Shown in pieces: positions 1 through 35,127 of a stretch of DNA of 64,000 bases. A program made the translations under genes and the position numbers. The notes under the pieces were generated by a model. The model made no database searches. It had not been told where the DNA came from and was given only the letters and a program-made list of their open reading frames with translations. The first letter of the stretch is position 1. Every line of letters starts with the position of its first letter. Source of the stretch: Acidobacteriota bacterium (GTDB lineage Bacteria; Acidobacteriota; JAAYUB01); the NCBI GenBank assembly GCA_012517875.1, contig JAAYUB010000026.1, positions 1,134-65,133 of the forward strand. The letters are read 5' to 3'.

Positions 1-837
1 GAGCTTGGCAGTCAGTGCAAAACCGGTGAAGATGGCGGCTAAGGTCAACCAGCCTTCTGTACCAAACCGGCGCCACCTGAACAAGCACAAGATCGCCGCA
101 AACAGAAACAGCGTCACACCCAGATCGGTATAGGCCGAGGACATCTCCCACATCACCACAGGCAGCACCAGCCAAAAAGCCGCGAACAGCCAGGTGCCTC
201 CGGGTTCGAGCCGCTCCTCCACAAACACGCCGGGCAGCAGCGCGATCAGGGCACCCAGGCAGAAATGCAGCAGCTTCGCGCCGATTTCTCCGCCCGCCAA
301 CCCCGCCGCGCCGAAGAGCGCGGCAATGGCGTTGGGAATGTACGCGTTCCAGTTGCTGGGTTCCACCGGCAACACCCCGGTGGCGGCCAGCTCGCGGGCC
401 AGCCAGAGATGAGTGCGCAAGGCGTCGAAATTGAGTTCCGGCACAAAGCACAGCAGGAACGGCGCACCGAGCAGCACCAGGGCCAGCGCCGGCCAGCGGC
501 CGTGATCGCACAGGCATGCCCACACCGGCCGGCCCGGCTGACCGCGCTGCCCCCACCACCAGAACCCGACGGCCAGCGCCGCGACCACCGGCAGCCGCAC
601 CAGGCCCACCAGTGACAGGCCGTAGAACAGTTGGGCCATGGCGCCCAGTCCCAAGGCAGTCTGGAACGCGAACGTGAAGGCGCTGTGACGCCGGGGATGC
701 TCCTCGACCGGCAGGATGAACCCTTCAATCCGGGCACCCAAGCCGCGGCAGCCCGCCACCAGGACGGCGACCCAGGCCAGGGCGAACCCGGACTGGATAA
801 CGGCTGGCAGAGCATTGAGCCAAGGCAGTGGAGTCAT
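1..837 (-). CDS. Integral membrane protein, N-terminal part; gene continues past the window start
   Basis: Minus-strand frame with ATG at 837..835 reads MTPLPWLNALPAVIQSGFALAWVAVLVAGC..., with many hydrophobic stretches and high GC3. Open to coordinate 1, so it is absent from the ORF track. The listed ORFs 246..815(-) and 265..615(+) are off-frame. Confidence 0.5.
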   Translation of the reverse strand, partial: MTPLPWLNALPAVIQSGFALAWVAVLVAGCRGLGARIEGFILPVEEHPRRHSAFTFAFQTALGLGAMAQLFYGLSLVGLVRLPVVAALAVGFWWWGQRGQPGRPVWACLCDHGRWPALALVLLGAPFLLCFVPELNFDALRTHLWLARELAATGVLPVEPSNWNAYIPNAIAALFGAAGLAGGEIGAKLLHFCLGALIALLPGVFVEERLEPGGTWLFAAFWLVLPVVMWEMSSAYTDLGVTLFLFAAILCLFRWRRFGTEGWLTLAAIFTGFALTAKL

Positions 838-960
838 CTCCCGGTCCCCGCAGAATCAAGTCTCCGGCGATCGACCCGGCCTGCGCCGCTGGCGGCAACA
901 TCTGTCCTGCTGTCGACCGGTCCAGCGCCCCCCCGCTGTCCGGTTGCCCGTCCGCGTCAC

Positions 961-2316
961 TCAGCGGCGGGCCTTTTCGTCCATGATCTCGATGATCTTC
1001 CGATCCACGGCCCGCATGGATCGGCTCAGTTCCGCCAGGTTACGGATGGTGGCTTCGGGTGTCAGCGCGACGATGCCGTCATCCGCCGACACCTCCATCT
1101 GTTTCATGGCCATCTGGGCCGCGCGGGTGGCCATATCCGCCGAGGAACTGACTTTCAGCGCGCAGCCCGGCTTGGCGCCGTCGCAGATCATCCCGGAGAG
1201 CGTGGCCGCCATGATCTTGACCGCCCGTCCGATGTCCGTGACATCCCCGCCCATCGCGTAGGTGATGCCGCAGGCTGCCCCGATCCCGGCCTTGATGGCC
1301 ACGCCGCAGAGCGCGGACAGGTAACCCACGTGCAGGGTGATGTGCATGGTGACCAGGTGGGCCAGCGCCACCGCCTGAACCAGCCGGTCCTCCGGCAGGC
1401 CCGCACTGCGGGACCAAGCCACCACCGGGATTGTCGCGATGATTCCCTGGTTGCCGGATCCCGCGGAACTCATCACCTCCAACGGGAAGCCGGACATGCG
1501 GGCATCACTGCCCGCCGCCGCGACGCTGGAGACGTGATGGGGCAAGTCGACGTGGTCGTCGGTGTCGCCGCCGGCGCCATGAAATCCCGCGCCCAGGCCC
1601 AACGGTTCGATCAACCCGGCCTCGCAGACACGCATGTTCAGCGCGATGGTCCGGCGGATCAGCTCCACAACCGGATTTGGCAGATCAGCCACCAAGGCGA
1701 CCATCTCGCTGAACTGCATCTGGCGCAACGTTTCCAGGTCCGCGTCGGCCGATCGGTTCCCGGTGGCCTCGGGCTGATCGCGATAGGTTTCCCGGCCACC
1801 GGCAAGCAGGCGCACGATGTGCGTGTGTCGGTCCTGGATGCTGCAGCCGCCGGCAAGAATATCCGGTCCCCGCTGAAAGCGGACTTCCGCCTCGATGTAC
1901 AAGTCGACCGGCGGCAGGTTTTCGTCGACAGTCACCGAGACGCGGCCTTGGTCGATGAGCCACCGGGCCTGGCCGACCGTGGCGTCGTCCACCTGGTTGA
2001 ACAGTTCCAGTTCCAGCAGCGGATTGCAGAAGGCGCCCAGCGCCGCCGAGATGTAGATGCCCTTCAATCCCGGAGCATTGGGGATCGGAATAGCATATGC
2101 GTTCTTGTAGATGCACGGGGTGACCCGCACCGTGATATCCCGGATGTCTGCGGCCCTCAATCCGGACACCGGCAGGTCACGTTGCCCCACCACCCAGCCG
2201 CCGGCGGCCTGGACGGCCGAGCCGACCGCCAAGGCCACCGCCACCGGTTCCGTGCAACCGAGAGCCGGTTTCAGAATGGCATGAAACAGTTTTTCCAAAT
2301 TGATCGGTCCGCTCAT
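961..2316 (-). CDS. UPF0597/YhaM-family serine dehydratase-like protein (L-cysteine desulfidase family)
   Basis: Internal start MSGPINLEKLF... within ORF 961..2472. Motifs PALGCTEPVAVALA, SDARMSGFPLEVMSSAGSGNQGIIATIPVV, MICDGAKPGCALKVSSSADMA and the C-terminal RKIIEIMDEKARR match E. coli YhaM along its length, recalled from memory. About 452 aa. Confidence 0.8.
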   Translation of the reverse strand: MSGPINLEKLFHAILKPALGCTEPVAVALAVGSAVQAAGGWVVGQRDLPVSGLRAADIRDITVRVTPCIYKNAYAIPIPNAPGLKGIYISAALGAFCNPLLELELFNQVDDATVGQARWLIDQGRVSVTVDENLPPVDLYIEAEVRFQRGPDILAGGCSIQDRHTHIVRLLAGGRETYRDQPEATGNRSADADLETLRQMQFSEMVALVADLPNPVVELIRRTIALNMRVCEAGLIEPLGLGAGFHGAGGDTDDHVDLPHHVSSVAAAGSDARMSGFPLEVMSSAGSGNQGIIATIPVVAWSRSAGLPEDRLVQAVALAHLVTMHITLHVGYLSALCGVAIKAGIGAACGITYAMGGDVTDIGRAVKIMAATLSGMICDGAKPGCALKVSSSADMATRAAQMAMKQMEVSADDGIVALTPEATIRNLAELSRSMRAVDRKIIEIMDEKARR

Positions 2317-3586: not shown

Positions 3587-5068
3587 TCAGTCCGCCTTCG
3601 ACGGCGGGGGTATCTCATAATTCACGTTGACCTGAACCTTCTGATAGTCGCTGAACCGGGAGACCACCCGGACATTGACACCGGAAACCAGCAGCACCCT
3701 CGCGGCGATGTTGCCGTCGGTGAGATGCGGCAACCACACCTCGCCGGCCACCTTCCGCTGTTCCACCAGAAAGCGTGTGTTCGGCGCGACCGAGGCCAGC
3801 AGCCCCCCGCCAATCTTGAACTTGTCCGTAAGCCGCGCCTCGACCCGGGCGACCTCCCGGGCGTCCTCGTCCACCCAGATGGTCCCGGCCAGTTTGCCGA
3901 GAAGGGTCTCCGTCTGGCTGCGCGGCTTGAAATCGGCTCGCGGCTCGAAGTCGAAGGCGATGACTTCCTGGCCATGCAGCTGCTCCCGTCGGAGCGAGTG
4001 GATCTCCGCAGCCCGAAGAAAGATCAGCACCGCGTCTTCCTCAGCCGCCGATCCGCGCCGTTTGGATTTCCTGTCCGAATCTTTGATCATCTTCTCGACC
4101 TGTTCCGCGACGCGCTTGTCCTCTTTTGCCTGTTCCTTGGCTGACAAGGGCTTGCCGTTCTTGCTCACCAAGCGTTCTACAAACGCCCCGTTCACCGGCG
4201 TCACGTCGTAGGTCGTGGCTTCTGTCTTTTTGACACGACCGGATCCATCCATCTCCTGAACCGTCCGGTTCTCGCGGAACGTGTACCGCTCCCGCATACG
4301 GGCGTTCTTCTCCTGGTTGGCGGAGATCTCCCGCAGCAGCACCGCCGGATCAGGCAGCGGCCGGCCGCCGGCCTCGGCTGGAAAACGGAATGTCTCAGCG
4401 GCCAAACCTGAACCATGGCTGACGCGCGCCAGCGTCACACGGAATTCACCGGCCGGACCCTGATACGCCAGGGCGTATGGCTCCAACACACCGTCCACGC
4501 GACGGAAATCATCAAACTGCCACGACTCCGTTCCCGCATCCGTCCGGCGTTCCTGCCGAAGGAGCAGATAGTTCGCGGAATCGAACACAAGGGTGACCGT
4601 CTCCTCACCCTGCGTCAGGTCGACGGCGACCGCGGCCCGGTCCTCCACCCGAACGGTGCGTACCGTCGGCCCCAGCCGGATCCGGTGGCGGGACAGGTCC
4701 CCCAGCCGCGCGGCGGTCAGCAGCGCCCGCAGGCGCAGCGCCGCGGCGTCTCCGCCGACCAGTGTCCGGAGCCCCGCCGCATCCCGCCGCCAGGCGGACA
4801 TGCCGTTGTAGCATTCGGTAAAAGCGACCGCACCCAGCTCCACGTCCAGGCGGTACCGGTCCGGCACCGACATCCGCAACGCGAACCGACCGGTGCGCCC
4901 GTCGGGAGCGACGGCGGTACCCGACCACTCCGTCGCCCGCACGGCTTTCACGGCTTTTCCGCCGATGGCCGTCCGATACTTGTCGATGATCTTCCCGGGT
5001 GACTGGGCGCCGAGCGCGAGCGCCAGACTCCCAATGCCCAGCAAACAGGCAACCAGCAAACGTTTCAT
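3587..5068 (-). CDS. Secreted hypothetical protein (N-terminal signal peptide)
   Basis: N-terminus MKRLLVACLLGIGSLALALGAQSPG reads as a signal peptide. 493 aa, mixed charge. No family recognised. Confidence 0.55.
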   Translation of the reverse strand: MKRLLVACLLGIGSLALALGAQSPGKIIDKYRTAIGGKAVKAVRATEWSGTAVAPDGRTGRFALRMSVPDRYRLDVELGAVAFTECYNGMSAWRRDAAGLRTLVGGDAAALRLRALLTAARLGDLSRHRIRLGPTVRTVRVEDRAAVAVDLTQGEETVTLVFDSANYLLLRQERRTDAGTESWQFDDFRRVDGVLEPYALAYQGPAGEFRVTLARVSHGSGLAAETFRFPAEAGGRPLPDPAVLLREISANQEKNARMRERYTFRENRTVQEMDGSGRVKKTEATTYDVTPVNGAFVERLVSKNGKPLSAKEQAKEDKRVAEQVEKMIKDSDRKSKRRGSAAEEDAVLIFLRAAEIHSLRREQLHGQEVIAFDFEPRADFKPRSQTETLLGKLAGTIWVDEDAREVARVEARLTDKFKIGGGLLASVAPNTRFLVEQRKVAGEVWLPHLTDGNIAARVLLVSGVNVRVVSRFSDYQKVQVNVNYEIPPPSKAD

Positions 5069-5271: not shown

Positions 5272-6807
5272 ATGAAGCCACGCCACGAGATCCTGATCCT
5301 GGATTTCGGTTCCCAATACACGCAGCTGATTGCCCGTCGGATCCGCGAGTGCCGTGTCTACTGCCAGATCGTACCCTTCAACGTCTCTCTAGACGCGGTT
5401 CGGCGGCGCCCGGTTAGCGGCATCGTGCTGTCAGGCGGACCCATGTCGGTGCTCCACCCGGACAGCCCCCTCTGCGATCCCGGCGTATTTGAGCTGGGCG
5501 TGCCCGTGCTGGGCATCTGTTACGGGCTCCAGCTCGCCGCCCGGTTGCTCGGCGGCGAGGTGCGGCAGGGCACCTGCCGGGAGTATGGCCGGGCCGTGAT
5601 CCGGCGGATCGGCCAGACTCCGCTGCTAGACGGAGTCCCCGATGAAACCGTCGTCTGGATGAGCCACGGCGACGATGTCCGGCGGCTGCCGCCGGGTTTC
5701 CGGGCGGTTGCGGAGTCGGACCAGACGATCGCCGCGGCTGAACATTCCGACCGGCGCTGGTACGGGTTGCAGTTCCATCCCGAGGTGGCGCATACCCGCG
5801 AGGGGACGCGGATCCTTCGGAATTTCCTGTTCACCATCTGCGGCTGCCGGCGATCCTGGTCGCTGGCCTCGTTCGCCGGAGAGCAGGTGCGCCGCATCCG
5901 GGAGCAGGTGGGCGCCGGCCAGGTGATCTGCGCCCTGAGCGGCGGTGTGGACTCCACCGTGGCGGCGACACTGGTCCACCAAGCGGTGGGTCGTCAGCAA
6001 CTGTGCCTCTTCGTGGACAACGGGTTGCTGCGGCAGGCCGAATTCACCGCCGTGCTGGAGCGCTACCGGCAACTGGAGCTCAACGTCGTGCCGGTGGATG
6101 CCGCCCGCCGCTTCCTCGCTGCGCTCGCCGGGGTGGCCGATCCGGAAGCCAAGCGGAAAATCATCGGGCAGCTGTTCATCGAGGTCTTCGAAGCGGAAGC
6201 CCGCAAATTGGGCCGGGTGGACTTCCTCGTCCAGGGCACGCTCTATCCTGACGTCATCGAGTCGGTGTCGGTTCGGGGCCCGTCCGCGGTCATCAAGAGC
6301 CACCACAACGTGGGCGGCCTGCCCGACCGGATGAATCTGAAGCTCATCGAACCGCTCCGAGAGTTGTTCAAGGACGAGGTGCGACGGCTGGGCCGCCGCC
6401 TAGGCATCCCCGACACCTTCATCCAGCGGCAGCCGTTTCCGGGACCCGGTCTGGCGGTGCGCCACCTGGGACCGGTGACTCCGGAAGGCCTGGACATCCT
6501 CCGTCGCGCCGACGGCATTGTGCTCGACGAGATCCGCGCAGCCGGTCTGTACACGAAGCTGTGGCAGTCGTTCGCCGTGTTGCTGCCTGTCCGCAGCGTC
6601 GGCGTGATGGGTGACGAGCGGACCTACGAATACACCGTGGCCGTGCGGGCGGTCAAGAGCGAGGACGGGATGACCGCCGACTGGGTCCGCCTGCCCTATG
6701 CCGTGCTGGAACGAATCTCCACCCGCATCGTCAATGAGGTCCACGGTGTCAACCGCGTGGTGTACGACATCAGCGCCAAGCCGCCCAGCACCATCGAATG
6801 GGAATGA
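5272..6807 (+). CDS. guaA: GMP synthase (glutamine-hydrolysing)
   Basis: [20 protein letters not shown] class-I glutamine amidotransferase N-terminus, [11 protein letters not shown]-pyrophosphatase P-loop, and the canonical C-terminus ...PPSTIEWE. 511 aa. Confidence 0.95.
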
Positions 6808-6897
6808 TCTTGCAGCCAGCGACGCATCCGCTTGCCGGTTGTCCCGTCTCACCCGATCGAAACCGTCACTCGTTGTTTCGGCGCCAAACCCGCCGGC

Positions 6898-7272
6898 TCA
6901 ATGATCGTGACCGTGCCCGTGGTGGCCACAGGCTGTCTCACGGGTGATTGGAACCAAGCGTCCGGCGGCGAAAGCTACCAGCGCCTCCGCCACCGTGGAA
7001 TGCTCGGCCCGGAACACCTGGATGTTGGCCGACTGAAGCTTGAGGCAGGCGCCCCAGCCGATACCGCCCACCACCAGTGCCTCGACCGATTGGCCCGTCA
7101 ACGCGGCCAGCGGCTGGCACATGCCGTGGGCGTGGTGCTGATCGGCGTTGACCACCGCTTGCGTGGCGCGCGTTTCGGTATCCACAATCAGAAAGACAGG
7201 CGCAGACCCGAAGTGCGGGCACAACGGGCTGTTCAGACCTCGGTTTTCATCCACCGGGAAACAGATGTTCAT
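6898..7272 (-). CDS. NifX/NifB-type dinitrogenase FeMo-cofactor-binding domain protein (DUF134 partner)
   Basis: Internal start MNICFPVDENRGLNSPLCPHFGSAPVFLIVD...VVGGIGWGA is typical of the small NifB/NifX-like domain family. AGGAGG lies 6-8 nt upstream on the minus strand. Its ATG overlaps the TGA of the upstream gene as ATGA. Confidence 0.7.
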   Translation of the reverse strand: MNICFPVDENRGLNSPLCPHFGSAPVFLIVDTETRATQAVVNADQHHAHGMCQPLAALTGQSVEALVVGGIGWGACLKLQSANIQVFRAEHSTVAEALVAFAAGRLVPITRETACGHHGHGHDH

Positions 7273-7601
7273 GATGAGACCTCCTGATCTTCCGGATCGG
7301 ACAAGATCAAAGCACAACCCTCCATGAGCGCCCGGGCGACTTTGTACCGGGCCCGCCACACCAGCCGCTGCACCGTGCCACGCGAAACGCCCATTCGGCG
7401 CCCGGCGGCATATTGTGAGAGCCCAAGCAGATCGCACAGGCGCAACGTCTCCAGTTCGTCCTGAGCCAGATGGATGGGCTCCAGGTCACGCAGAGGAATA
7501 CGGGTGGGCTTGAAAGCGCGGCCGCCATACGGGCAGCCGCAGTGTCGGGGTTTGCAGGGACGGGGGCTCACGGGTGATCGCCTTGTTATGTGCATATGCA
7601 C
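7269..7601 (-). CDS. DUF134/UPF0251-family putative DNA-binding regulator
   Basis: Helix-turn-helix-like segment LRLCDLLGLSQYAAGRRMGVSRGTVQRLVWRARYKVARAL (sigma-70 region-4-like). Family usually paired with NifB-like domain proteins. Start is GTG at 7601 or ATG at 7595. Translationally coupled to the downstream gene. Confidence 0.7.
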   Translation of the reverse strand: MHMHITRRSPVSPRPCKPRHCGCPYGGRAFKPTRIPLRDLEPIHLAQDELETLRLCDLLGLSQYAAGRRMGVSRGTVQRLVWRARYKVARALMEGCALILSDPEDQEVSS

Positions 7602-7609
7602 ATAACAAG
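7582..7609. promoter_or_regulatory. Perfect 28-bp palindrome CTTGTTATGTGCATATGCACATAACAAG overlapping the DUF134 start codon; candidate operator
   Basis: Read directly from the sequence; the reverse complement is identical. AT-rich in a roughly 70% GC context. Confidence 0.5.
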
Positions 7610-7704
7610 AGTAGACCAGGGGCCGGCTGTTGTCAACACCTCATGTCGAGATTGATGGGTTGCCTGAAATGGCTCGCGGAACTGCCGGTCGGCCGGGGTG
7701 GCAA

Positions 7705-8163
7705 TCAGAACGCCAAGACCACGCCACCGCGTAGCGAGTTGGTCCAACCGGCGTCATCGTCGTGGACATAGGCATACTCGATCCGGCCGGCCACGTTGGG
7801 CAGGATGAATACCTTGGTCCCCACACCCAACTGGAGGTGGATGAGATTGTGGGTACCCGCCAGACCGTAGAATTTGAACCGGCCCGGCAGCGGGGCCTGC
7901 AACAGCGCGTTGAGATTGAGCCAGGTGTCGGAGTTGGGATCGTCGCTGCAGTGTTCCACCCCGCCCTCCACCATGAGATAGGGCAGGACATGCCGGCCGT
8001 AGTTGAATCCAACCAACGTGGCCGACCAGTCGCCGTAGAGGTCGGATACCCCCGCCCACACGAAGATCTCATTGTCGCGGTCTCCGAACAGAATGGACTG
8101 GGCCGGGGCGGTGCCGGCCGCGGCCGCCAGCAGCAGAATCACCAGTAATGCGCGTTGGACCAT
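7705..8163 (-). CDS. Outer-membrane beta-barrel protein (OmpW/OmpA-like small porin family)
   Basis: Signal peptide MVQRALLVILLLAAAAGTAPAQ, alternating hydrophobic beta-strand pattern, C-terminal ...GGVVLAF ending in aromatic F. Confidence 0.6.
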   Translation of the reverse strand: MVQRALLVILLLAAAAGTAPAQSILFGDRDNEIFVWAGVSDLYGDWSATLVGFNYGRHVLPYLMVEGGVEHCSDDPNSDTWLNLNALLQAPLPGRFKFYGLAGTHNLIHLQLGVGTKVFILPNVAGRIEYAYVHDDDAGWTNSLRGGVVLAF

Positions 8164-8318
8164 AGAGCCTCTCTTCGCCCGGCCGAACACTGGCTACGCC
8201 GGTTGCAGCGACGGGCACGTTATGCAAGATGGACGAATTTTATCACACTGCGCCTCGGCATCCGGGCAGTGCACTTTTCGGTTGCATCCCGTCCACCAGA
8301 CCCGCTACCATCTGACCC

Positions 8319-10769
8319 ATGAGCACCGCCGCCGAACCGCCTCCGCCACCTCGCCCTCGACGGGCTGTACGGCGTCTGATCCGCCCCATCTTTCTTTGGA
8401 CCGCCTCTGCCAGCGTATTTGTCGTCGGCTCGTTTTTCGGCTGGGCTTGGTTTACCGTGCGCGGCAGTCGCCCCGTTCTGAACGGAACAATCGCCGTAGC
8501 TGGACTGAACCACCCGGTGACCGTGTCACGAGACGCCCGCGGGGTTCCATGGATACGCGGCGGCTCCCGGGTGGATGTCGCGCGCGCGTTGGGCTTCATT
8601 CACGCCCAGGAGCGCTTCTTCCAGATGGACCTGCTGCGGCGGCAGGCGGCCGGCGAACTCGCCGCCCTGCTGGGCGGCCAGGCGCTGGAATGGGATCGCC
8701 AGGCCCGCAGCCACCGGTTTCGGAGCCGGGCGAAAGCCTCGGTGGCCGCCGTGCCGCCCGTCGACCGCCGCCTCATCGACGCCTATACCGCCGGCGTCAA
8801 CGTCGGTTTGACCTCCCTGAGCGCCGCACCGTTCGAGTACCTGCTCCTGCGCGTCGAGCCCGAGCCGTGGCGGGCGGAAGACACAATGCTGGCGCTGGTG
8901 GCGATGTTCTTCGCTCTGCACGACACCAGCAACCGGATGGAGTCCGACCTTGCCGTCATGGCGGACAAAATTCCACCCGCACTGCTCCCTTTTCTGGCGC
9001 CACCGGGAACCACTTGGGACGCCCCGCTCCAGGGCGGCAGCATGCCCGTCCCCGATCTGCCTTCCGCCGACCTTCTCGATCTCCGCCGCCGGCCACCGGC
9101 TCCAGTGCAGGCGAATCGGTGGACTGCCCCGCTCGATCCCTGCTTCGGCAGCAACAACTGGGCGGTTGCGGGACAGAGGACGTCTCACGGTGGCGCCCTC
9201 CTGGCCAATGACATGCATTTGGGATTGCACCTCCCGAACACCTGGTATCAGGTCGCCATGGTCTGGCCGGCCAACGACGGCGAACGGCAGGTGGCTGGCG
9301 TCACCCTGCCCGGGACGCCCGCCTTGGTCGTCGGCACCAACCGCCGGGTCGCGTGGGGATTTACAAACAGCTACGGCGACTGGCTGGACTGGGTGATTGT
9401 GCATCCCGATTCCGGGGACCCCGGCCGCTACCTCACGCCGGCAGGTCCACGGAAGTATGAGAAAATCGTGGAGCGCATAGCCGTGCGGGGCGGTGCGCCG
9501 GTTGACCTGGAGGTCGTGAACACAATCTGGGGACCGGTAGTGGGCCGCGACCACCGCGGCCGGCCGCGCGCTCTCCGGTGGACCGCCCACGAGCCGGACG
9601 GAATCAACCTCCGACTCCTGGACCTCGAAAACGCACAGACTGTCGACCAAGCGATCGAGTGGGCCGCCCGCTGCGGCATCCCGCCTCAGAATTTTGTGTG
9701 TGTGGATGCTGCCGGGCGGATCGGCTGGACCATATGCGGCCGGATCCCTCGCCGCGTGGGCTTCGACGGGCGGCGGCCGGTTTCTTGGGCTGACGGCACC
9801 TGTCGGTGGGACGGGTGGCTGCCGGCAGCGGAATACCCGCGCCTGGTTGATCCGCCGTCCGGGATCATCTGGACCGCCAACAACCGTGTGACGGCGGGCG
9901 GCGATCTCCTTCGCATCGGCGATTCGGGATACGATCTCGGCGCCCGGGCCCGCCAGATCCGCGACGGCCTGGCCGCCATATCCGCGCCGGACGAGGGGGC
10001 CATGCTGCGCCTCCAGTTGGACGACCGGGCGGTGTTCCTGACCCGTTGGCGGGATCAGGTGCTGGCGCAGCTCACACCAGAGGCGGTAACCGGTCATCCG
10101 GGTCGCGCCGAGTTCCGGCGGCTGGTCCAGCACAACTGGAACGGACACGCCAGTACCGACTCCGCCGGATATCGCCTGGTGCGGGCTTATCGCCTGACGC
10201 TACTGGAGCAGGTGTACGGCTGGTTCATCGCCCCCTGCCGCGCCGCGGATCCGGATTTCGGCGAGTCGGGTCGCAGGCAGTGGGAAGATGTGCTGTGGCG
10301 CCTGGTGACGGAGCAGCCGCCTCACCTCCTCGACTCCCGGTACCGCGACTGGCCCGCGGTCTGCCTGGCCGCGGTGGACCGGGTGGTGGCCGAGCTGACA
10401 GCCGGCGACCGGTCGTTGGCGGCGTGCACGTGGGGTGACCGGAACAACGTGAAAGTCCGCCATCGCCTCAGCGGGGCGGTCCCGCTCCTGGCCGAGTGGG
10501 CAGACATGACCCCGCGCCCGCTGCCGGGTGACTCACACATGCCCCGGTTCCAGTCACCCGGCGCCGGCGCCTCCGAGCGGTTGGTGGTTTCCCCCGGCCG
10601 CGAAGAGAGGGCGATCTTCCACATGCCGGGCGGTCCCAGTGGCCACCCGCAATCCCCTTACTACGGCGCCGGCCATGCCGACTGGGAGGAAGGATGTCCT
10701 ACGGCCCTGCTGCCCGGACCGGCCCGTTGGATTCTGACTCTGACGCCTGCGGCGACACGGCCGGATTGA
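8319..10769 (+). CDS. Penicillin-acylase-family Ntn hydrolase (S45), AHL-acylase-like, N-terminally membrane-anchored
   Basis: 816 aa. Contains the autoprocessing and nucleophile motif CFGSNNWAVAG and the conserved NDMHLGL segment. N-terminal TM segment IFLWTASASVFVVGSFFGWAWF. Confidence 0.85.
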   Translation: MSTAAEPPPPPRPRRAVRRLIRPIFLWTASASVFVVGSFFGWAWFTVRGSRPVLNGTIAVAGLNHPVTVSRDARGVPWIRGGSRVDVARALGFIHAQERFFQMDLLRRQAAGELAALLGGQALEWDRQARSHRFRSRAKASVAAVPPVDRRLIDAYTAGVNVGLTSLSAAPFEYLLLRVEPEPWRAEDTMLALVAMFFALHDTSNRMESDLAVMADKIPPALLPFLAPPGTTWDAPLQGGSMPVPDLPSADLLDLRRRPPAPVQANRWTAPLDPCFGSNNWAVAGQRTSHGGALLANDMHLGLHLPNTWYQVAMVWPANDGERQVAGVTLPGTPALVVGTNRRVAWGFTNSYGDWLDWVIVHPDSGDPGRYLTPAGPRKYEKIVERIAVRGGAPVDLEVVNTIWGPVVGRDHRGRPRALRWTAHEPDGINLRLLDLENAQTVDQAIEWAARCGIPPQNFVCVDAAGRIGWTICGRIPRRVGFDGRRPVSWADGTCRWDGWLPAAEYPRLVDPPSGIIWTANNRVTAGGDLLRIGDSGYDLGARARQIRDGLAAISAPDEGAMLRLQLDDRAVFLTRWRDQVLAQLTPEAVTGHPGRAEFRRLVQHNWNGHASTDSAGYRLVRAYRLTLLEQVYGWFIAPCRAADPDFGESGRRQWEDVLWRLVTEQPPHLLDSRYRDWPAVCLAAVDRVVAELTAGDRSLAACTWGDRNNVKVRHRLSGAVPLLAEWADMTPRPLPGDSHMPRFQSPGAGASERLVVSPGREERAIFHMPGGPSGHPQSPYYGAGHADWEEGCPTALLPGPARWILTLTPAATRPD

Positions 10770-18908: not shown

Positions 18909-20147
18909 TCATACTTCGCCGCCGCCCAGCGTCTCGGGCAGATGCTGCCGCTGCAACTCTTCGTAATAGTTGATCACGGAGCGGACGTAGCGGCGTTTCT
19001 CCTCGTAGGGCCCTGGATAGAAACTCCGCTTGAAACCATAGACCAGCAGATCCTTGAGCTCCTTCGCCGTGATGGGAAAGTGTTCCAGGGCCAGGCCCAG
19101 CTCCCGGCACATGGTGGTCCGGGAGACCAGGCGGTTGTCGGTGCACAGGGTGCAGCTCAGGTTGCTCGCCCGCATTTGTCCAAAGGAGTGTTCCGCCAGG
19201 TTGTGGATCTGGGGGTTTGTCTGCAGGTTGCTCGAGAGGCAGACTTCGATGGTGATCCGCCGGTCGGCGATGTACTGGCTGAGCCGGTTCACATAATCCC
19301 GCCGGTCGGCGATCTCCGGCGAGCGGATCATGTCATCGCTGAACAGGAAGCTGCCGTGACCGATCCGGTCGGCGTGGCACTCGGTGATGGCCTGGAAGAT
19401 GCTCTCCGGGCCATAGGCCTCGCCTGCGTGGACCGTCTTTTTCATGAAGTTCCGGTGGACGAAATCGTAGGCATCCTTGAAGTCCACCGCCGGGTAGCCG
19501 AACTCGTCGCCGGCCAGGTCGAAACCAACAATCGGCACGCCGCAGCGGTCGCGGATGTCCACCACCGCCCGCGCCAGCTCCACCGCCGCGAGCTGGAACA
19601 CCTGCTTGGGCGGCGAGTAGCTGTGCAGCTCAAAGAACCGGCGGTAGAACTCCGAATAGACCGGTTCGAACTTGCGCATGGCACAGGCGATGATGCCGTA
19701 GGCGAAGCGCGGCTCCCGGCCGCTCCGGACGCCCTCGCTCCGGCTGTTGTAGTGGGCGGCCGCCCGCGCCAGCCCCCGGTCTACCGCCTGGAGCACCTCC
19801 TGGAAACCGAGGCCGGGATGCACGTGCAGGTGGGGGGCGAAGCGCACCTCGATGTAGCGAACCCCTTCGAGGATGTTATCCTCCATCAGCTCGTAGGCCA
19901 CCCGTTCCAGTGACTCGGGATTCTGCAGCACCGCGACGGTGTACTGAAAACCGTGCAGGTATTCGGTCAGGCTGGCGTACTTTTCCTTGAACACCTGCTC
20001 GAACAGGCCGTCCACCGTGTCCGACGGCAATTGCACCCGGTGCTGGCGGGCCAGGTCAATCAGCGTCTCGGGCCGGAGGGAACCGTCCAGGTGCAAATGC
20101 ACATCCGTCTTCGGCAGGAGACGGATCAGGTCGGCCGGGAGCTTCAT
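18909..20147 (-). CDS. Adenosine/AMP deaminase-family metallohydrolase
   Basis: Start MKLPADLIRLLPKTDVHLHLDGSL carries the HxHxDG metal motif. Also TVHAGE, CHADRIGHG and SSNLQT. About 413 aa, longer than canonical Add. Confidence 0.75.
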   Translation of the reverse strand: MKLPADLIRLLPKTDVHLHLDGSLRPETLIDLARQHRVQLPSDTVDGLFEQVFKEKYASLTEYLHGFQYTVAVLQNPESLERVAYELMEDNILEGVRYIEVRFAPHLHVHPGLGFQEVLQAVDRGLARAAAHYNSRSEGVRSGREPRFAYGIIACAMRKFEPVYSEFYRRFFELHSYSPPKQVFQLAAVELARAVVDIRDRCGVPIVGFDLAGDEFGYPAVDFKDAYDFVHRNFMKKTVHAGEAYGPESIFQAITECHADRIGHGSFLFSDDMIRSPEIADRRDYVNRLSQYIADRRITIEVCLSSNLQTNPQIHNLAEHSFGQMRASNLSCTLCTDNRLVSRTTMCRELGLALEHFPITAKELKDLLVYGFKRSFYPGPYEEKRRYVRSVINYYEELQRQHLPETLGGGEV

Positions 20148-20251
20148 GGGCACCTCAATCGGGGAAAATGGGACATTTATTGTAACCCATTCCCCCTGGC
20201 AGGCGAAATGTATTACAATGGCCATTCGATTCGCAGGAGGGCTGTGGCACC

Positions 20252-35023: not shown

Positions 35024-35127
35024 GTCGCCGCTGGCTTGCCACCTCCCGGGGTGCAATTGGCGCAGCGTCCGCCGAGCGGTATAATGGTTTACGTACCGCC
35101 GCTGAATCGAAGGCAACAGGAGGCCAT

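Follow-up and report, generated by a model that had tools for sequence, protein, structure and literature searches.

What is a perfect 28-bp palindrome doing just ahead of a small, regulator-like gene in an Acidobacteriota genome? The question is raised by a 64,000-nucleotide stretch of contig JAAYUB010000026.1 (positions 1,134 to 65,133 of the forward strand; assembly GCA_012517875.1), hereafter the window, whose minus strand carries a gene for a DUF134/UPF0251 protein followed by a gene for a NifX-like protein. A sequence-only reading of this DNA, made without database searches, had proposed that the pair is autoregulated, with the palindrome as its operator. Three results bear this proposal out: the core of the palindrome is conserved at promoters in at least five phyla, matches found by searching for the motif first fall at DUF134 and NifX-like genes, and the palindrome varies with the recognition helix of DUF134. 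We consider it likely that the DUF134 protein encoded immediately downstream uses the palindrome as its operator; this protein would act as an autorepressor of its own operon, and its regulon would be tied to metal–sulfur handling. The elements of the locus, in window coordinates, are as follows.

7631–7636, minus strand: −35 hexamer TTGACA, read from the sequence and conserved in relatives.
7608–7613, minus strand: −10 hexamer TACTCT, at a 17-nt spacing from the −35; the palindrome begins with its final two bases.
7582–7609, no strand: 28-bp palindrome CTTGTTATGTGCATATGCACATAACAAG, perfect (14+14), the candidate DUF134 operator.
7586–7605, no strand: wider 20-bp frame TTATG-N10-CATAA, surrounding the core.
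7590–7601, no strand: 12-bp candidate operator core GTGCATATGCAC, almost unchanged among 32 promoter-proximal sites that represent five phyla or more.
7581–7584, minus strand: probable Shine-Dalgarno sequence AAGG, 9 nt before the GTG at 7571 and overlapping the last 3 nt of the palindrome.
7269–7571, minus strand: DUF134/UPF0251 gene, 100 aa, start GTG 7571 (PF02001).
7269–7272, minus strand: ATGA, the overlap of the DUF134 stop and the NifX-like start, read from the sequence.
6898–7272, minus strand: gene for a NifX-like single-domain protein, 124 aa (Nitro_FeMo-Co, PF02579), assigned by Pfam and an ortholog alignment.

The palindrome is present and perfect, as had been claimed. About 0.0007 perfect 14+14 palindromes are expected per 64-kb window at the composition of this one, and the longest palindrome in 200 shuffles of the window had a half-length of 12, in agreement with the earlier judgement that such a site is unlikely by chance. 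The second-longest perfect palindrome of the window is 8+8 (TCCAGCTGCAGCTGGA, 2730–2745). AT-richness was also correctly noted, with G or C at 10 of the 28 bases; the background against which it was set, about 70% GC, is in fact 64.3% for the window. The suggested search for further half-sites, run within the window, found no copy with fewer than three mismatches and weaker matches at chance level; the palindrome is thus unique, a single copy in 64 kb.

The relation of the palindrome to the coding region had to be revised. The sequence-only reading had the palindrome covering the start codon of the DUF134 gene, and the longest open reading frame (ORF), 7601 to 7269, does open with a GTG (7601) inside the palindrome and has an in-frame ATG at the palindrome's centre. 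Such a start is ruled out, however, by four lines of evidence. Homologs begin with M(S)PRPxKPRxC in 26 of 26 sequences of one alignment (A1) and 110 of 110 of another (A2), and these starts align with residue 11 of the long ORF, that is, with the GTG at 7571–7569. A 97%-identical Acidobacteriota locus (L001) has ATG at the codon equivalent to this GTG. The Shine-Dalgarno spacing points the same way, with GGAGG-like sequences at the position equivalent to AAGG in other loci, and public gene calls hold the identical 100-aa protein (P0001). With the start at GTG 7571, the palindrome therefore ends 10 nt ahead of the coding region, and the 'MHMHITRR' and 'MCICT' N-terminal extensions seen in many loci are translated palindrome.

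Read along the minus strand, the region runs TTGACA (7636–7631), 17 nt, TACTCT (7613–7608), tgttat, the core GTGCATATGCAC, ataacaAGG, cgatcaccc and GTG. We predict that TTGACA-17-TACTCT is a near-consensus sigma-70-type promoter. The transcription start is predicted at about 7601, inside the core and 6–8 nt past the −10, with the palindrome covering the start and the first ~25 transcribed bases. As would be expected of an autoregulatory operator, the palindrome overlaps the promoter of the regulator's own gene and is conserved among orthologs.

This conservation was assessed in 80 homologous loci (398 kb) recovered from a genome collection with a DUF134 alignment, with cores counted at up to two mismatches to GTGCATATGCAC. 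In the window and in 31 of the 80 loci, a core has its centre 22–40 nt (mostly 25) ahead of the DUF134 start, giving 32 sites. The core-bearing loci belong to Acidobacteriota, Verrucomicrobiota, Myxococcota, several Desulfobacterota lineages, Nitrospirota and one 'Betaproteobacteria' metagenome-assembled genome (MAG). Exact core 12-mers number 24 in the 398 kb against 0.02–0.05 expected, and 23 of these 24 lie at the DUF134-upstream position. Sites at about −25 essentially coincide with the loci in which DUF134 is followed by a NifX-like ortholog (phmmer E < 1e-28). The common layout is TTGAC(A/T/G), ~17 nt, a TATAAT-like hexamer, the core, and then A-n-A-A. TTGAC(A/T/G) lies 20–29 bp upstream of the core, measured from the end of the −35, in 30 of the 32 loci, and in other phyla the TATAAT-like hexamer directly abuts the core. 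All 32 window-type loci have the site on the −10/+1 region or downstream of it. Across the 32 sites the 12 core positions are almost invariant; outside them, good conservation is limited to T(−4)/A(+15) and T(−1)/A(+12). The full 28-bp perfection is lineage-specific, a 77%-identical relative (L002) already having two mismatches.

The site tracks the start of the operon and not just DUF134, as loci with the reverse gene order show: where the NifX-like gene comes first and DUF134 second (L058, L060, L072 and many Desulfobulbaceae), the core or a close variant precedes the NifX-like gene. A variant stands in front of a convergent operon (DUF302, an SBF/ACR3-like permease and a NifX-like gene) in other Desulfobacterota. 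The site in Ca. Electronema (L034) heads a NifX-like gene and two MinD-ferredoxin ATPases of Orp3/Orp4 type, and in L031 an additional site separates DUF134 from the NifX-like gene. One MAG (L041) has exact cores at 520–531 and 1811–1822, 1.3 kb apart; the first precedes a gene for an unannotated 151-aa secreted-looking protein (weak MamS-like match) and then an OsmC-family gene, and the second precedes DUF134 and a NifX-like gene. A cation-efflux (CDF) protein fused to a NifX-like domain is also among the products of site-headed genes, and CDF, ZIP and SBF/ACR3-like transporters recur in the clusters. The pairing of DUF134 with NifX-like proteins, described earlier as habitual, does recur across phyla. 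A Desulfuromonadaceae MAG (L060, 2822–3253) shows the order NifX-like gene, SBF-like permease, DUF134 and, directly after it, a NifU/IscU-type iron–sulfur (Fe-S) scaffold gene.

The association with these genes does not depend on having started from DUF134. When a metagenome collection was searched for TWWTGTGCATATGCACAWWA without reference to genes, at least 121 sites were found on at least 120 contigs. Among the 121 matches listed, 98 sit at most 400 nt upstream of DUF134, NifX-like or DUF302 genes, and three more precede CDF-NifX fusion or DUF5320-type genes (L161 judged by eye), so that ~83% of the listed matches are tied to one small gene set (DUF134, NifX-like, DUF302, DUF5320). Of the remaining listed matches, some are chance occurrences in the coding sequence of a dehydrogenase-like gene, others fall in eukaryote-like low-complexity DNA or at contig edges, and a few have no explanation. 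The clustering at one gene set disposes of a dispersed repeat (repetitive extragenic palindromic or miniature inverted-repeat transposable element-like), the palindrome being moreover a single copy in the window; the many unrelated sites that the sequence-only reading had named as telling against an operator were not the pattern among the matches listed.

Two further observations concern particular contigs. In L146 the site lies at 1420–1439, and the fusion gene (111–1349, minus strand) links a NifX-like domain with metal export. Exact copies of TTTTGTGCATATGCACAAAA adjoin a lipoprotein-like gene with no Pfam match in L140 (645–664), L162 (1107–1126) and L175 (9689–9708); this gene possibly belongs to the regulon too, or the match is a coincidence within one lineage.

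DUF134 is the sole gene common to all site-bearing loci sampled, and the site changes with its recognition helix, which suggests that DUF134 itself likely reads the site. The helix of the window type, SRGT[VI]QR, goes with the core GTGCATATGCAC (32 sites), and the invariance of this helix in the subfamily matches that of the core. Three different proteins with the helix SRPTFQR (L210, L213/L214 and L215) go with GAGCATATGCTC in the same promoter frame; relative to the window type, core positions 2 and 11 are symmetrically altered, giving T(T/A)ATGAGCATATGCTCATAA. These DUF134 proteins are ~155 aa long with a Cys-rich C-terminal extension, and their operons continue with NifX-like, DUF5320 and ParA/Mrp-like genes. 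The archaeal helix SQPTFFR (five contigs, with DUF5320 then DUF134 in the operon) goes with two tandem TGAAT-N4-ATTCA palindromes placed directly after a TTTAAATA box (TATA box). The positions of both variant types are given here.

L210 1962–1985; L213 1465–1488; L214 898–921; L215 1470–1489: SRPTFQR sites, T(T/A)ATGAGCATATGCTCATAA after TTGACA-17-(−10).
L206 2104–2141; L207 2232–2269; L208 2218–2254; L211 1720–1757; L212 1717–1754: archaeal tandem palindromes TGAATATATATTCA and TGAATTAGTATTCA.

The helix SRQTFGR (L216) goes with GAGCATATGACC, located in the −35/−10 spacer. In the Firmicutes loci L205 (helix SRPTFFR) and L209 (SRPTFHR), GTTCATA stands beside the −35 in both, and no clean palindrome was definable in either. 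The clean bacterial palindromes share the frame T(T/A)ATG-N10-CATA(A/T), which the archaeal sites fit only approximately. Site specificity thus covaries with the DNA-reading residues of DUF134, in a sample that is small for SRPTFQR and SQPTFFR, and we regard this sequence covariation as good but not conclusive evidence for DUF134 as the binder. In two of the archaeal contigs, L206 and L211, a ZIP transporter gene lies just upstream.

Based on these data, we propose a likely model for the locus. The site itself, where it lies, its conservation, the genes it accompanies and its covariation with the recognition helix are observed; binding by DUF134, dimerisation, repression as opposed to activation and the kind of signal belong to the model. 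The promoter TTGACA-17-TACTCT would drive a minus-strand two-gene operon, DUF134 and then the NifX-like gene, and the operator would begin within the −10 and cover the predicted start at ~7601. A DUF134 dimer would place one sigma-region-4-like helix-turn-helix (HTH) on each half-site, TTATGTGCAT and ATGCACATAA. The bound dimer would occlude RNA polymerase or block promoter escape, and DUF134 would thereby keep its own operon repressed until it is released by a signal. The signal may be a metal or an Fe-S species acting via the conserved cysteines or the NifX-like partner. In related genomes, the putative regulon would comprise genes for NifX-like proteins, DUF302, an SBF/ACR3-like permease, the CDF-NifX fusion, DUF5320 and Orp3/Orp4-like MinD-ferredoxin ATPases. 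The identity of these site-headed genes suggests that the regulon concerns the handling of metals or metal-sulfide clusters, and a role in metal or metal–sulfur homeostasis is a reasonable inference.

Several points weigh against this model. A strict consensus sigma-70 scan of 6700–8400 called no promoter, because TACTCT is a weak −10; with the scanner having missed it, the promoter assignment in the window rests on the cross-phylum alignment. Repression is read from position alone, namely the overlap of the site with the −10/+1 region. A site directly upstream of DUF134 occurs in only 31 of the 80 loci, many others having a variant elsewhere in the cluster, and ~17% of the listed motif-first matches lie away from regulon-type genes. 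Outside the window type, the covariation comes from three SRPTFQR proteins and five closely related archaeal contigs. Finally, the site could in principle serve some other regulator that is widely conserved.

If such a regulator used the site, for example a global metal or redox regulator, then DUF134, the NifX-like protein and DUF302 would merely be its targets. The site does head operons whose first gene is not DUF134, and the outer arms TGTTAT...ATAACA in the window show a possible resemblance to Fur/Zur-type boxes. Those arms, however, are not conserved outside Acidobacteriota, and DUF134 lies in or beside nearly every site-bearing cluster. Moreover, the core changes with the DUF134 helix in both bacteria and archaea, which is unexpected for an unrelated global regulator, and our literature search found no link between the motif and a known regulator. 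We judge this explanation improbable.

Somewhat less probable again is that DUF134 binds the site as an activator, a dual regulator or a sigma-like specificity factor and not as a simple autorepressor. An HTH of sigma region-4 type would suit such a role, as would the L216 site within the −35/−10 spacer, a position that is also used by MerR-type activators. Nevertheless, a near-consensus −35/−10 pair at 17-nt spacing should need no activator, and in 32 of 32 window-type loci the site is placed either on the −10/+1 region or downstream of it, which is the classical position of a repressor.

An action in the mRNA, whereby a 12-bp 5′-leader hairpin masks the ribosome-binding site start or stabilises the transcript, is very improbable: although a fully transcribed 28-mer would have a folding energy of −16.3 kcal/mol (z = −6) and overlaps the AAGG with its 3′ end, the −10 overlaps the palindrome and the predicted start at ~7601 leaves only a 4-bp hairpin, in a leader that folds no better than shuffles (z = −0.68), while in other phyla the sequence is palindromic over only 12–20 bp with the Shine-Dalgarno outside it. 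In addition, the core is invariant and not covarying, the flanks are asymmetric, their pairs not being maintained as complements (11 to 27 of the 32 sites are complementary per flank position), and an Rfam search found no known RNA family at the palindrome; invariance without compensation, asymmetric flanks and the lack of an Rfam family argue for a DNA site. An intrinsic terminator or structured leader, including a terminator for the upstream outer-membrane protein (OMP) gene, was also rejected: no terminator was called, the stem is AT-rich, there is no T-run and no compensatory changes were seen.

The DUF134 protein matches PF02001 at 54.7 bits against a cut-off of 27 (Pfam; E = 1.5e-14). 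Its match to NCBIfam PRK04217 scores 66, below that model's cut-off of 115. The HTH that had been ascribed to DUF134 proteins was recovered as a confident sigma-region-4-type fold, with sub-threshold Pfam matches to Sigma70_r4 and r4_2, a confident AlphaFold2 model (mean predicted local distance difference test score 87.7) and sigma region 4 domains as the top Foldseek matches of that model. The three-helix core superimposes on region 4 of extracytoplasmic function (ECF) sigma factors and on the N-terminal DNA-binding domain of B. subtilis DeoR (SorC family) with root-mean-square deviations of 0.6–1.0 Å over ~41–50 residues. In contrast to both, DUF134 has an arm, MSPRPxKPRxCxC, and two short beta-strands without counterpart; it lacks the region 2 of ECF sigma factors and the sugar-binding domain of DeoR. 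The recognition helix in the window is SRGTVQR (in VSRGTVQR), invariant within the subfamily, and Cys11 and Cys46 are invariant in 111 sequences. No solved structure of a DUF134 protein was found, the structure and sequence matches being to generic sigma region 4 and DeoR-N HTHs. A single consensus-query search gave more than 6,800 clusters at 90% identity for DUF134/UPF0251, ranging over anaerobic bacteria and archaea. DVU2107 of Desulfovibrio vulgaris may be a DUF134 protein, which would tie the family to the orp1 operon.

The NifX-like partner matches PF02579 at 70.2 bits against a cut-off of 26.3 (E = 1.9e-19). It has many conserved Cys and His residues, with the C-terminal tail CGHHGHGHDH in the window; the ortholog alignment shows conserved C4, HFGSAP, N-x-DQHHxHGxCxP, VGGIGxGAL and a C-terminal Cys/His tail, and there is a weak NCBIfam match to the C-terminal domain of MrpORP. 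The ATGA overlap had been taken to indicate translational coupling and fixed stoichiometry. The overlap itself is present, but strict coupling is not conserved, ATGA occurring in 9 of ~27 comparable loci with gaps of 0–41 nt in the remainder and outliers of 118 and 414 nt; what is conserved is co-transcription. In other phyla the DUF134/NifX-like pair is an isolated bicistron.

In the closest sister lineage (P0004; L081–L084 and L002; DUF134 80% identical), synteny is kept and the NifX-like gene is missing, with a 280-bp gap between DUF134 and guaA that holds a weak NifX-like remnant (20.5 bits; L081–L084 6001–6583, L002 2991–3224, equivalent to window 6898–7272). DUF134 is retained there, as is the palindrome with two mismatches. 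The conserved unit is therefore the regulator together with its operator, and by this comparison the NifX-like partner is frequent but dispensable.

In the window, guaA lies downstream of the pair in convergent orientation. The upstream side has a gene for a small OMP beta-barrel and, on the opposite strand, one for penicillin amidase; genes for a D-Ala-D-Ala carboxypeptidase and for a tetratricopeptide repeat protein are also among the neighbours. A nif cluster (nifENX, nifHDK, nifB) is absent around the pair, the remainder of the 64-kb window not having been scanned for nif genes, and a genuine nitrogenase NifX, which would sit in such a cluster, was rejected on this ground. Elsewhere in the window, two further core-like sequences were rejected as operators. 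The first, at 20091–20102 (GTGCAAATGCAC, one mismatch to the core), falls in coding sequence, where it encodes a VHLHLDG-type segment close to the N-terminus in a gene on the minus strand, and is a chance or coding match; the second, at 35122, has two mismatches, and the total match count in the window is within chance. The region 20160–20220 is AT-rich and intergenic, flanked by two divergent genes, an amidohydrolase-like one on the minus strand and another on the plus strand; it has the inverted hexamers TTGTAA ... TTACAA ~30 nt apart and may be another regulatory site. At 3587–5068 (minus strand) lies a gene for a 493-aa secreted-looking protein with no Pfam match, whose synteny is kept in the sister lineage (L081 8322–9803).

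The proposed arrangement is reminiscent of classical autoregulated HTH repressors of the ArsR/SmtB, TetR and Fur types, with which it shares a palindromic site over a strong sigma-70 promoter, a (here presumably dimeric) HTH protein, the regulator as first gene of the operon, and targets that include metal transporters and metal-binding proteins. It differs from them in the regulator itself, which falls outside these families, being a DUF134/UPF0251 protein of 100 aa whose HTH is of sigma-70 region-4 type and whose N-terminal arm contains Cys.

The putative targets in turn recall two known systems. The ORP cluster of Desulfovibrio vulgaris (Orp3/4/5/8, MrpORP), the nearest system to have been studied, combines single-domain NifX-like ('Di-Nase', IPR003731) binders of metal-sulfide or Fe-S clusters with MinD-ferredoxin ATPases (PMC6345978), gene types that also stand under the candidate DUF134 operator in Ca. 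Electronema L034. Transcription of the two orp operons in D. vulgaris depends on sigma-54 and on DVU2106, an enhancer-binding activator (PMC4641369), unlike the window pair with its sigma-70-like promoter and palindromic operator. Orp3/Orp4 ATPase, MrpORP and Mrp genes are all absent within ~5 kb of the pair in the window; an ORP complex locus, marked by adjacent Orp3/Orp4 and MrpORP genes and a sigma-54 promoter with activator, was accordingly rejected. The second system is IssA of Pyrococcus furiosus (thioferrate iron–sulfur storage) which, with the NifX/NafY/NifB-C carriers, shares the PF02579/IPR003731 fold family (PMC5524996, PMC8351635). The window protein has neither a nif context nor the cationic C-terminal tail of IssA, and has instead HFGSAP, DQHHxHGxCxP and a short Cys/His tail. 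Ligands reported in this domain family are a Mo-Cu sulfide cluster (Orp8), [3Fe-4S] (MrpORP's Di-Nase domain) and thioferrate (IssA) (PMC6345978, PMC5524996, PMC8351635).

A bolder extension, which we advance tentatively and think unlikely as it stands, is that DUF134 and the NifX-like protein form a two-protein sensor of metal-sulfide or Fe-S status and hence a new class of cluster- or metal-responsive regulator. The NifX-like protein would bind a cluster or thiometallate and pass it to, or compete for it with, Cys11 and Cys46 of DUF134 (four cysteines per dimer), and this transfer or competition would switch operator binding. If true, a sigma region-4 HTH regulator common to anaerobic bacteria and archaea would control genes for metal–sulfur storage and export of the ORP/IssA type.

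Our literature search found no functional study of DUF134/UPF0251, with only passing mentions in the searchable literature, and the motif is absent from the microbial literature searched; this agrees with the earlier statement that binding site and ligand are not established for the pair. The novelty lies in assigning DUF134/UPF0251 a specific operator together with a candidate regulon, the mechanism of an autorepressor acting on a palindrome being itself conventional. A large protein family now has a testable putative binding site, with the frame T(T/A)ATG-N10-CATA(A/T) and subfamily-specific inner bases, set over the −10/+1 region of a consensus promoter. With the operator so defined, the regulon can be counted in any genome, and the signal that controls ORP/IssA-like metal–sulfur proteins can be sought.

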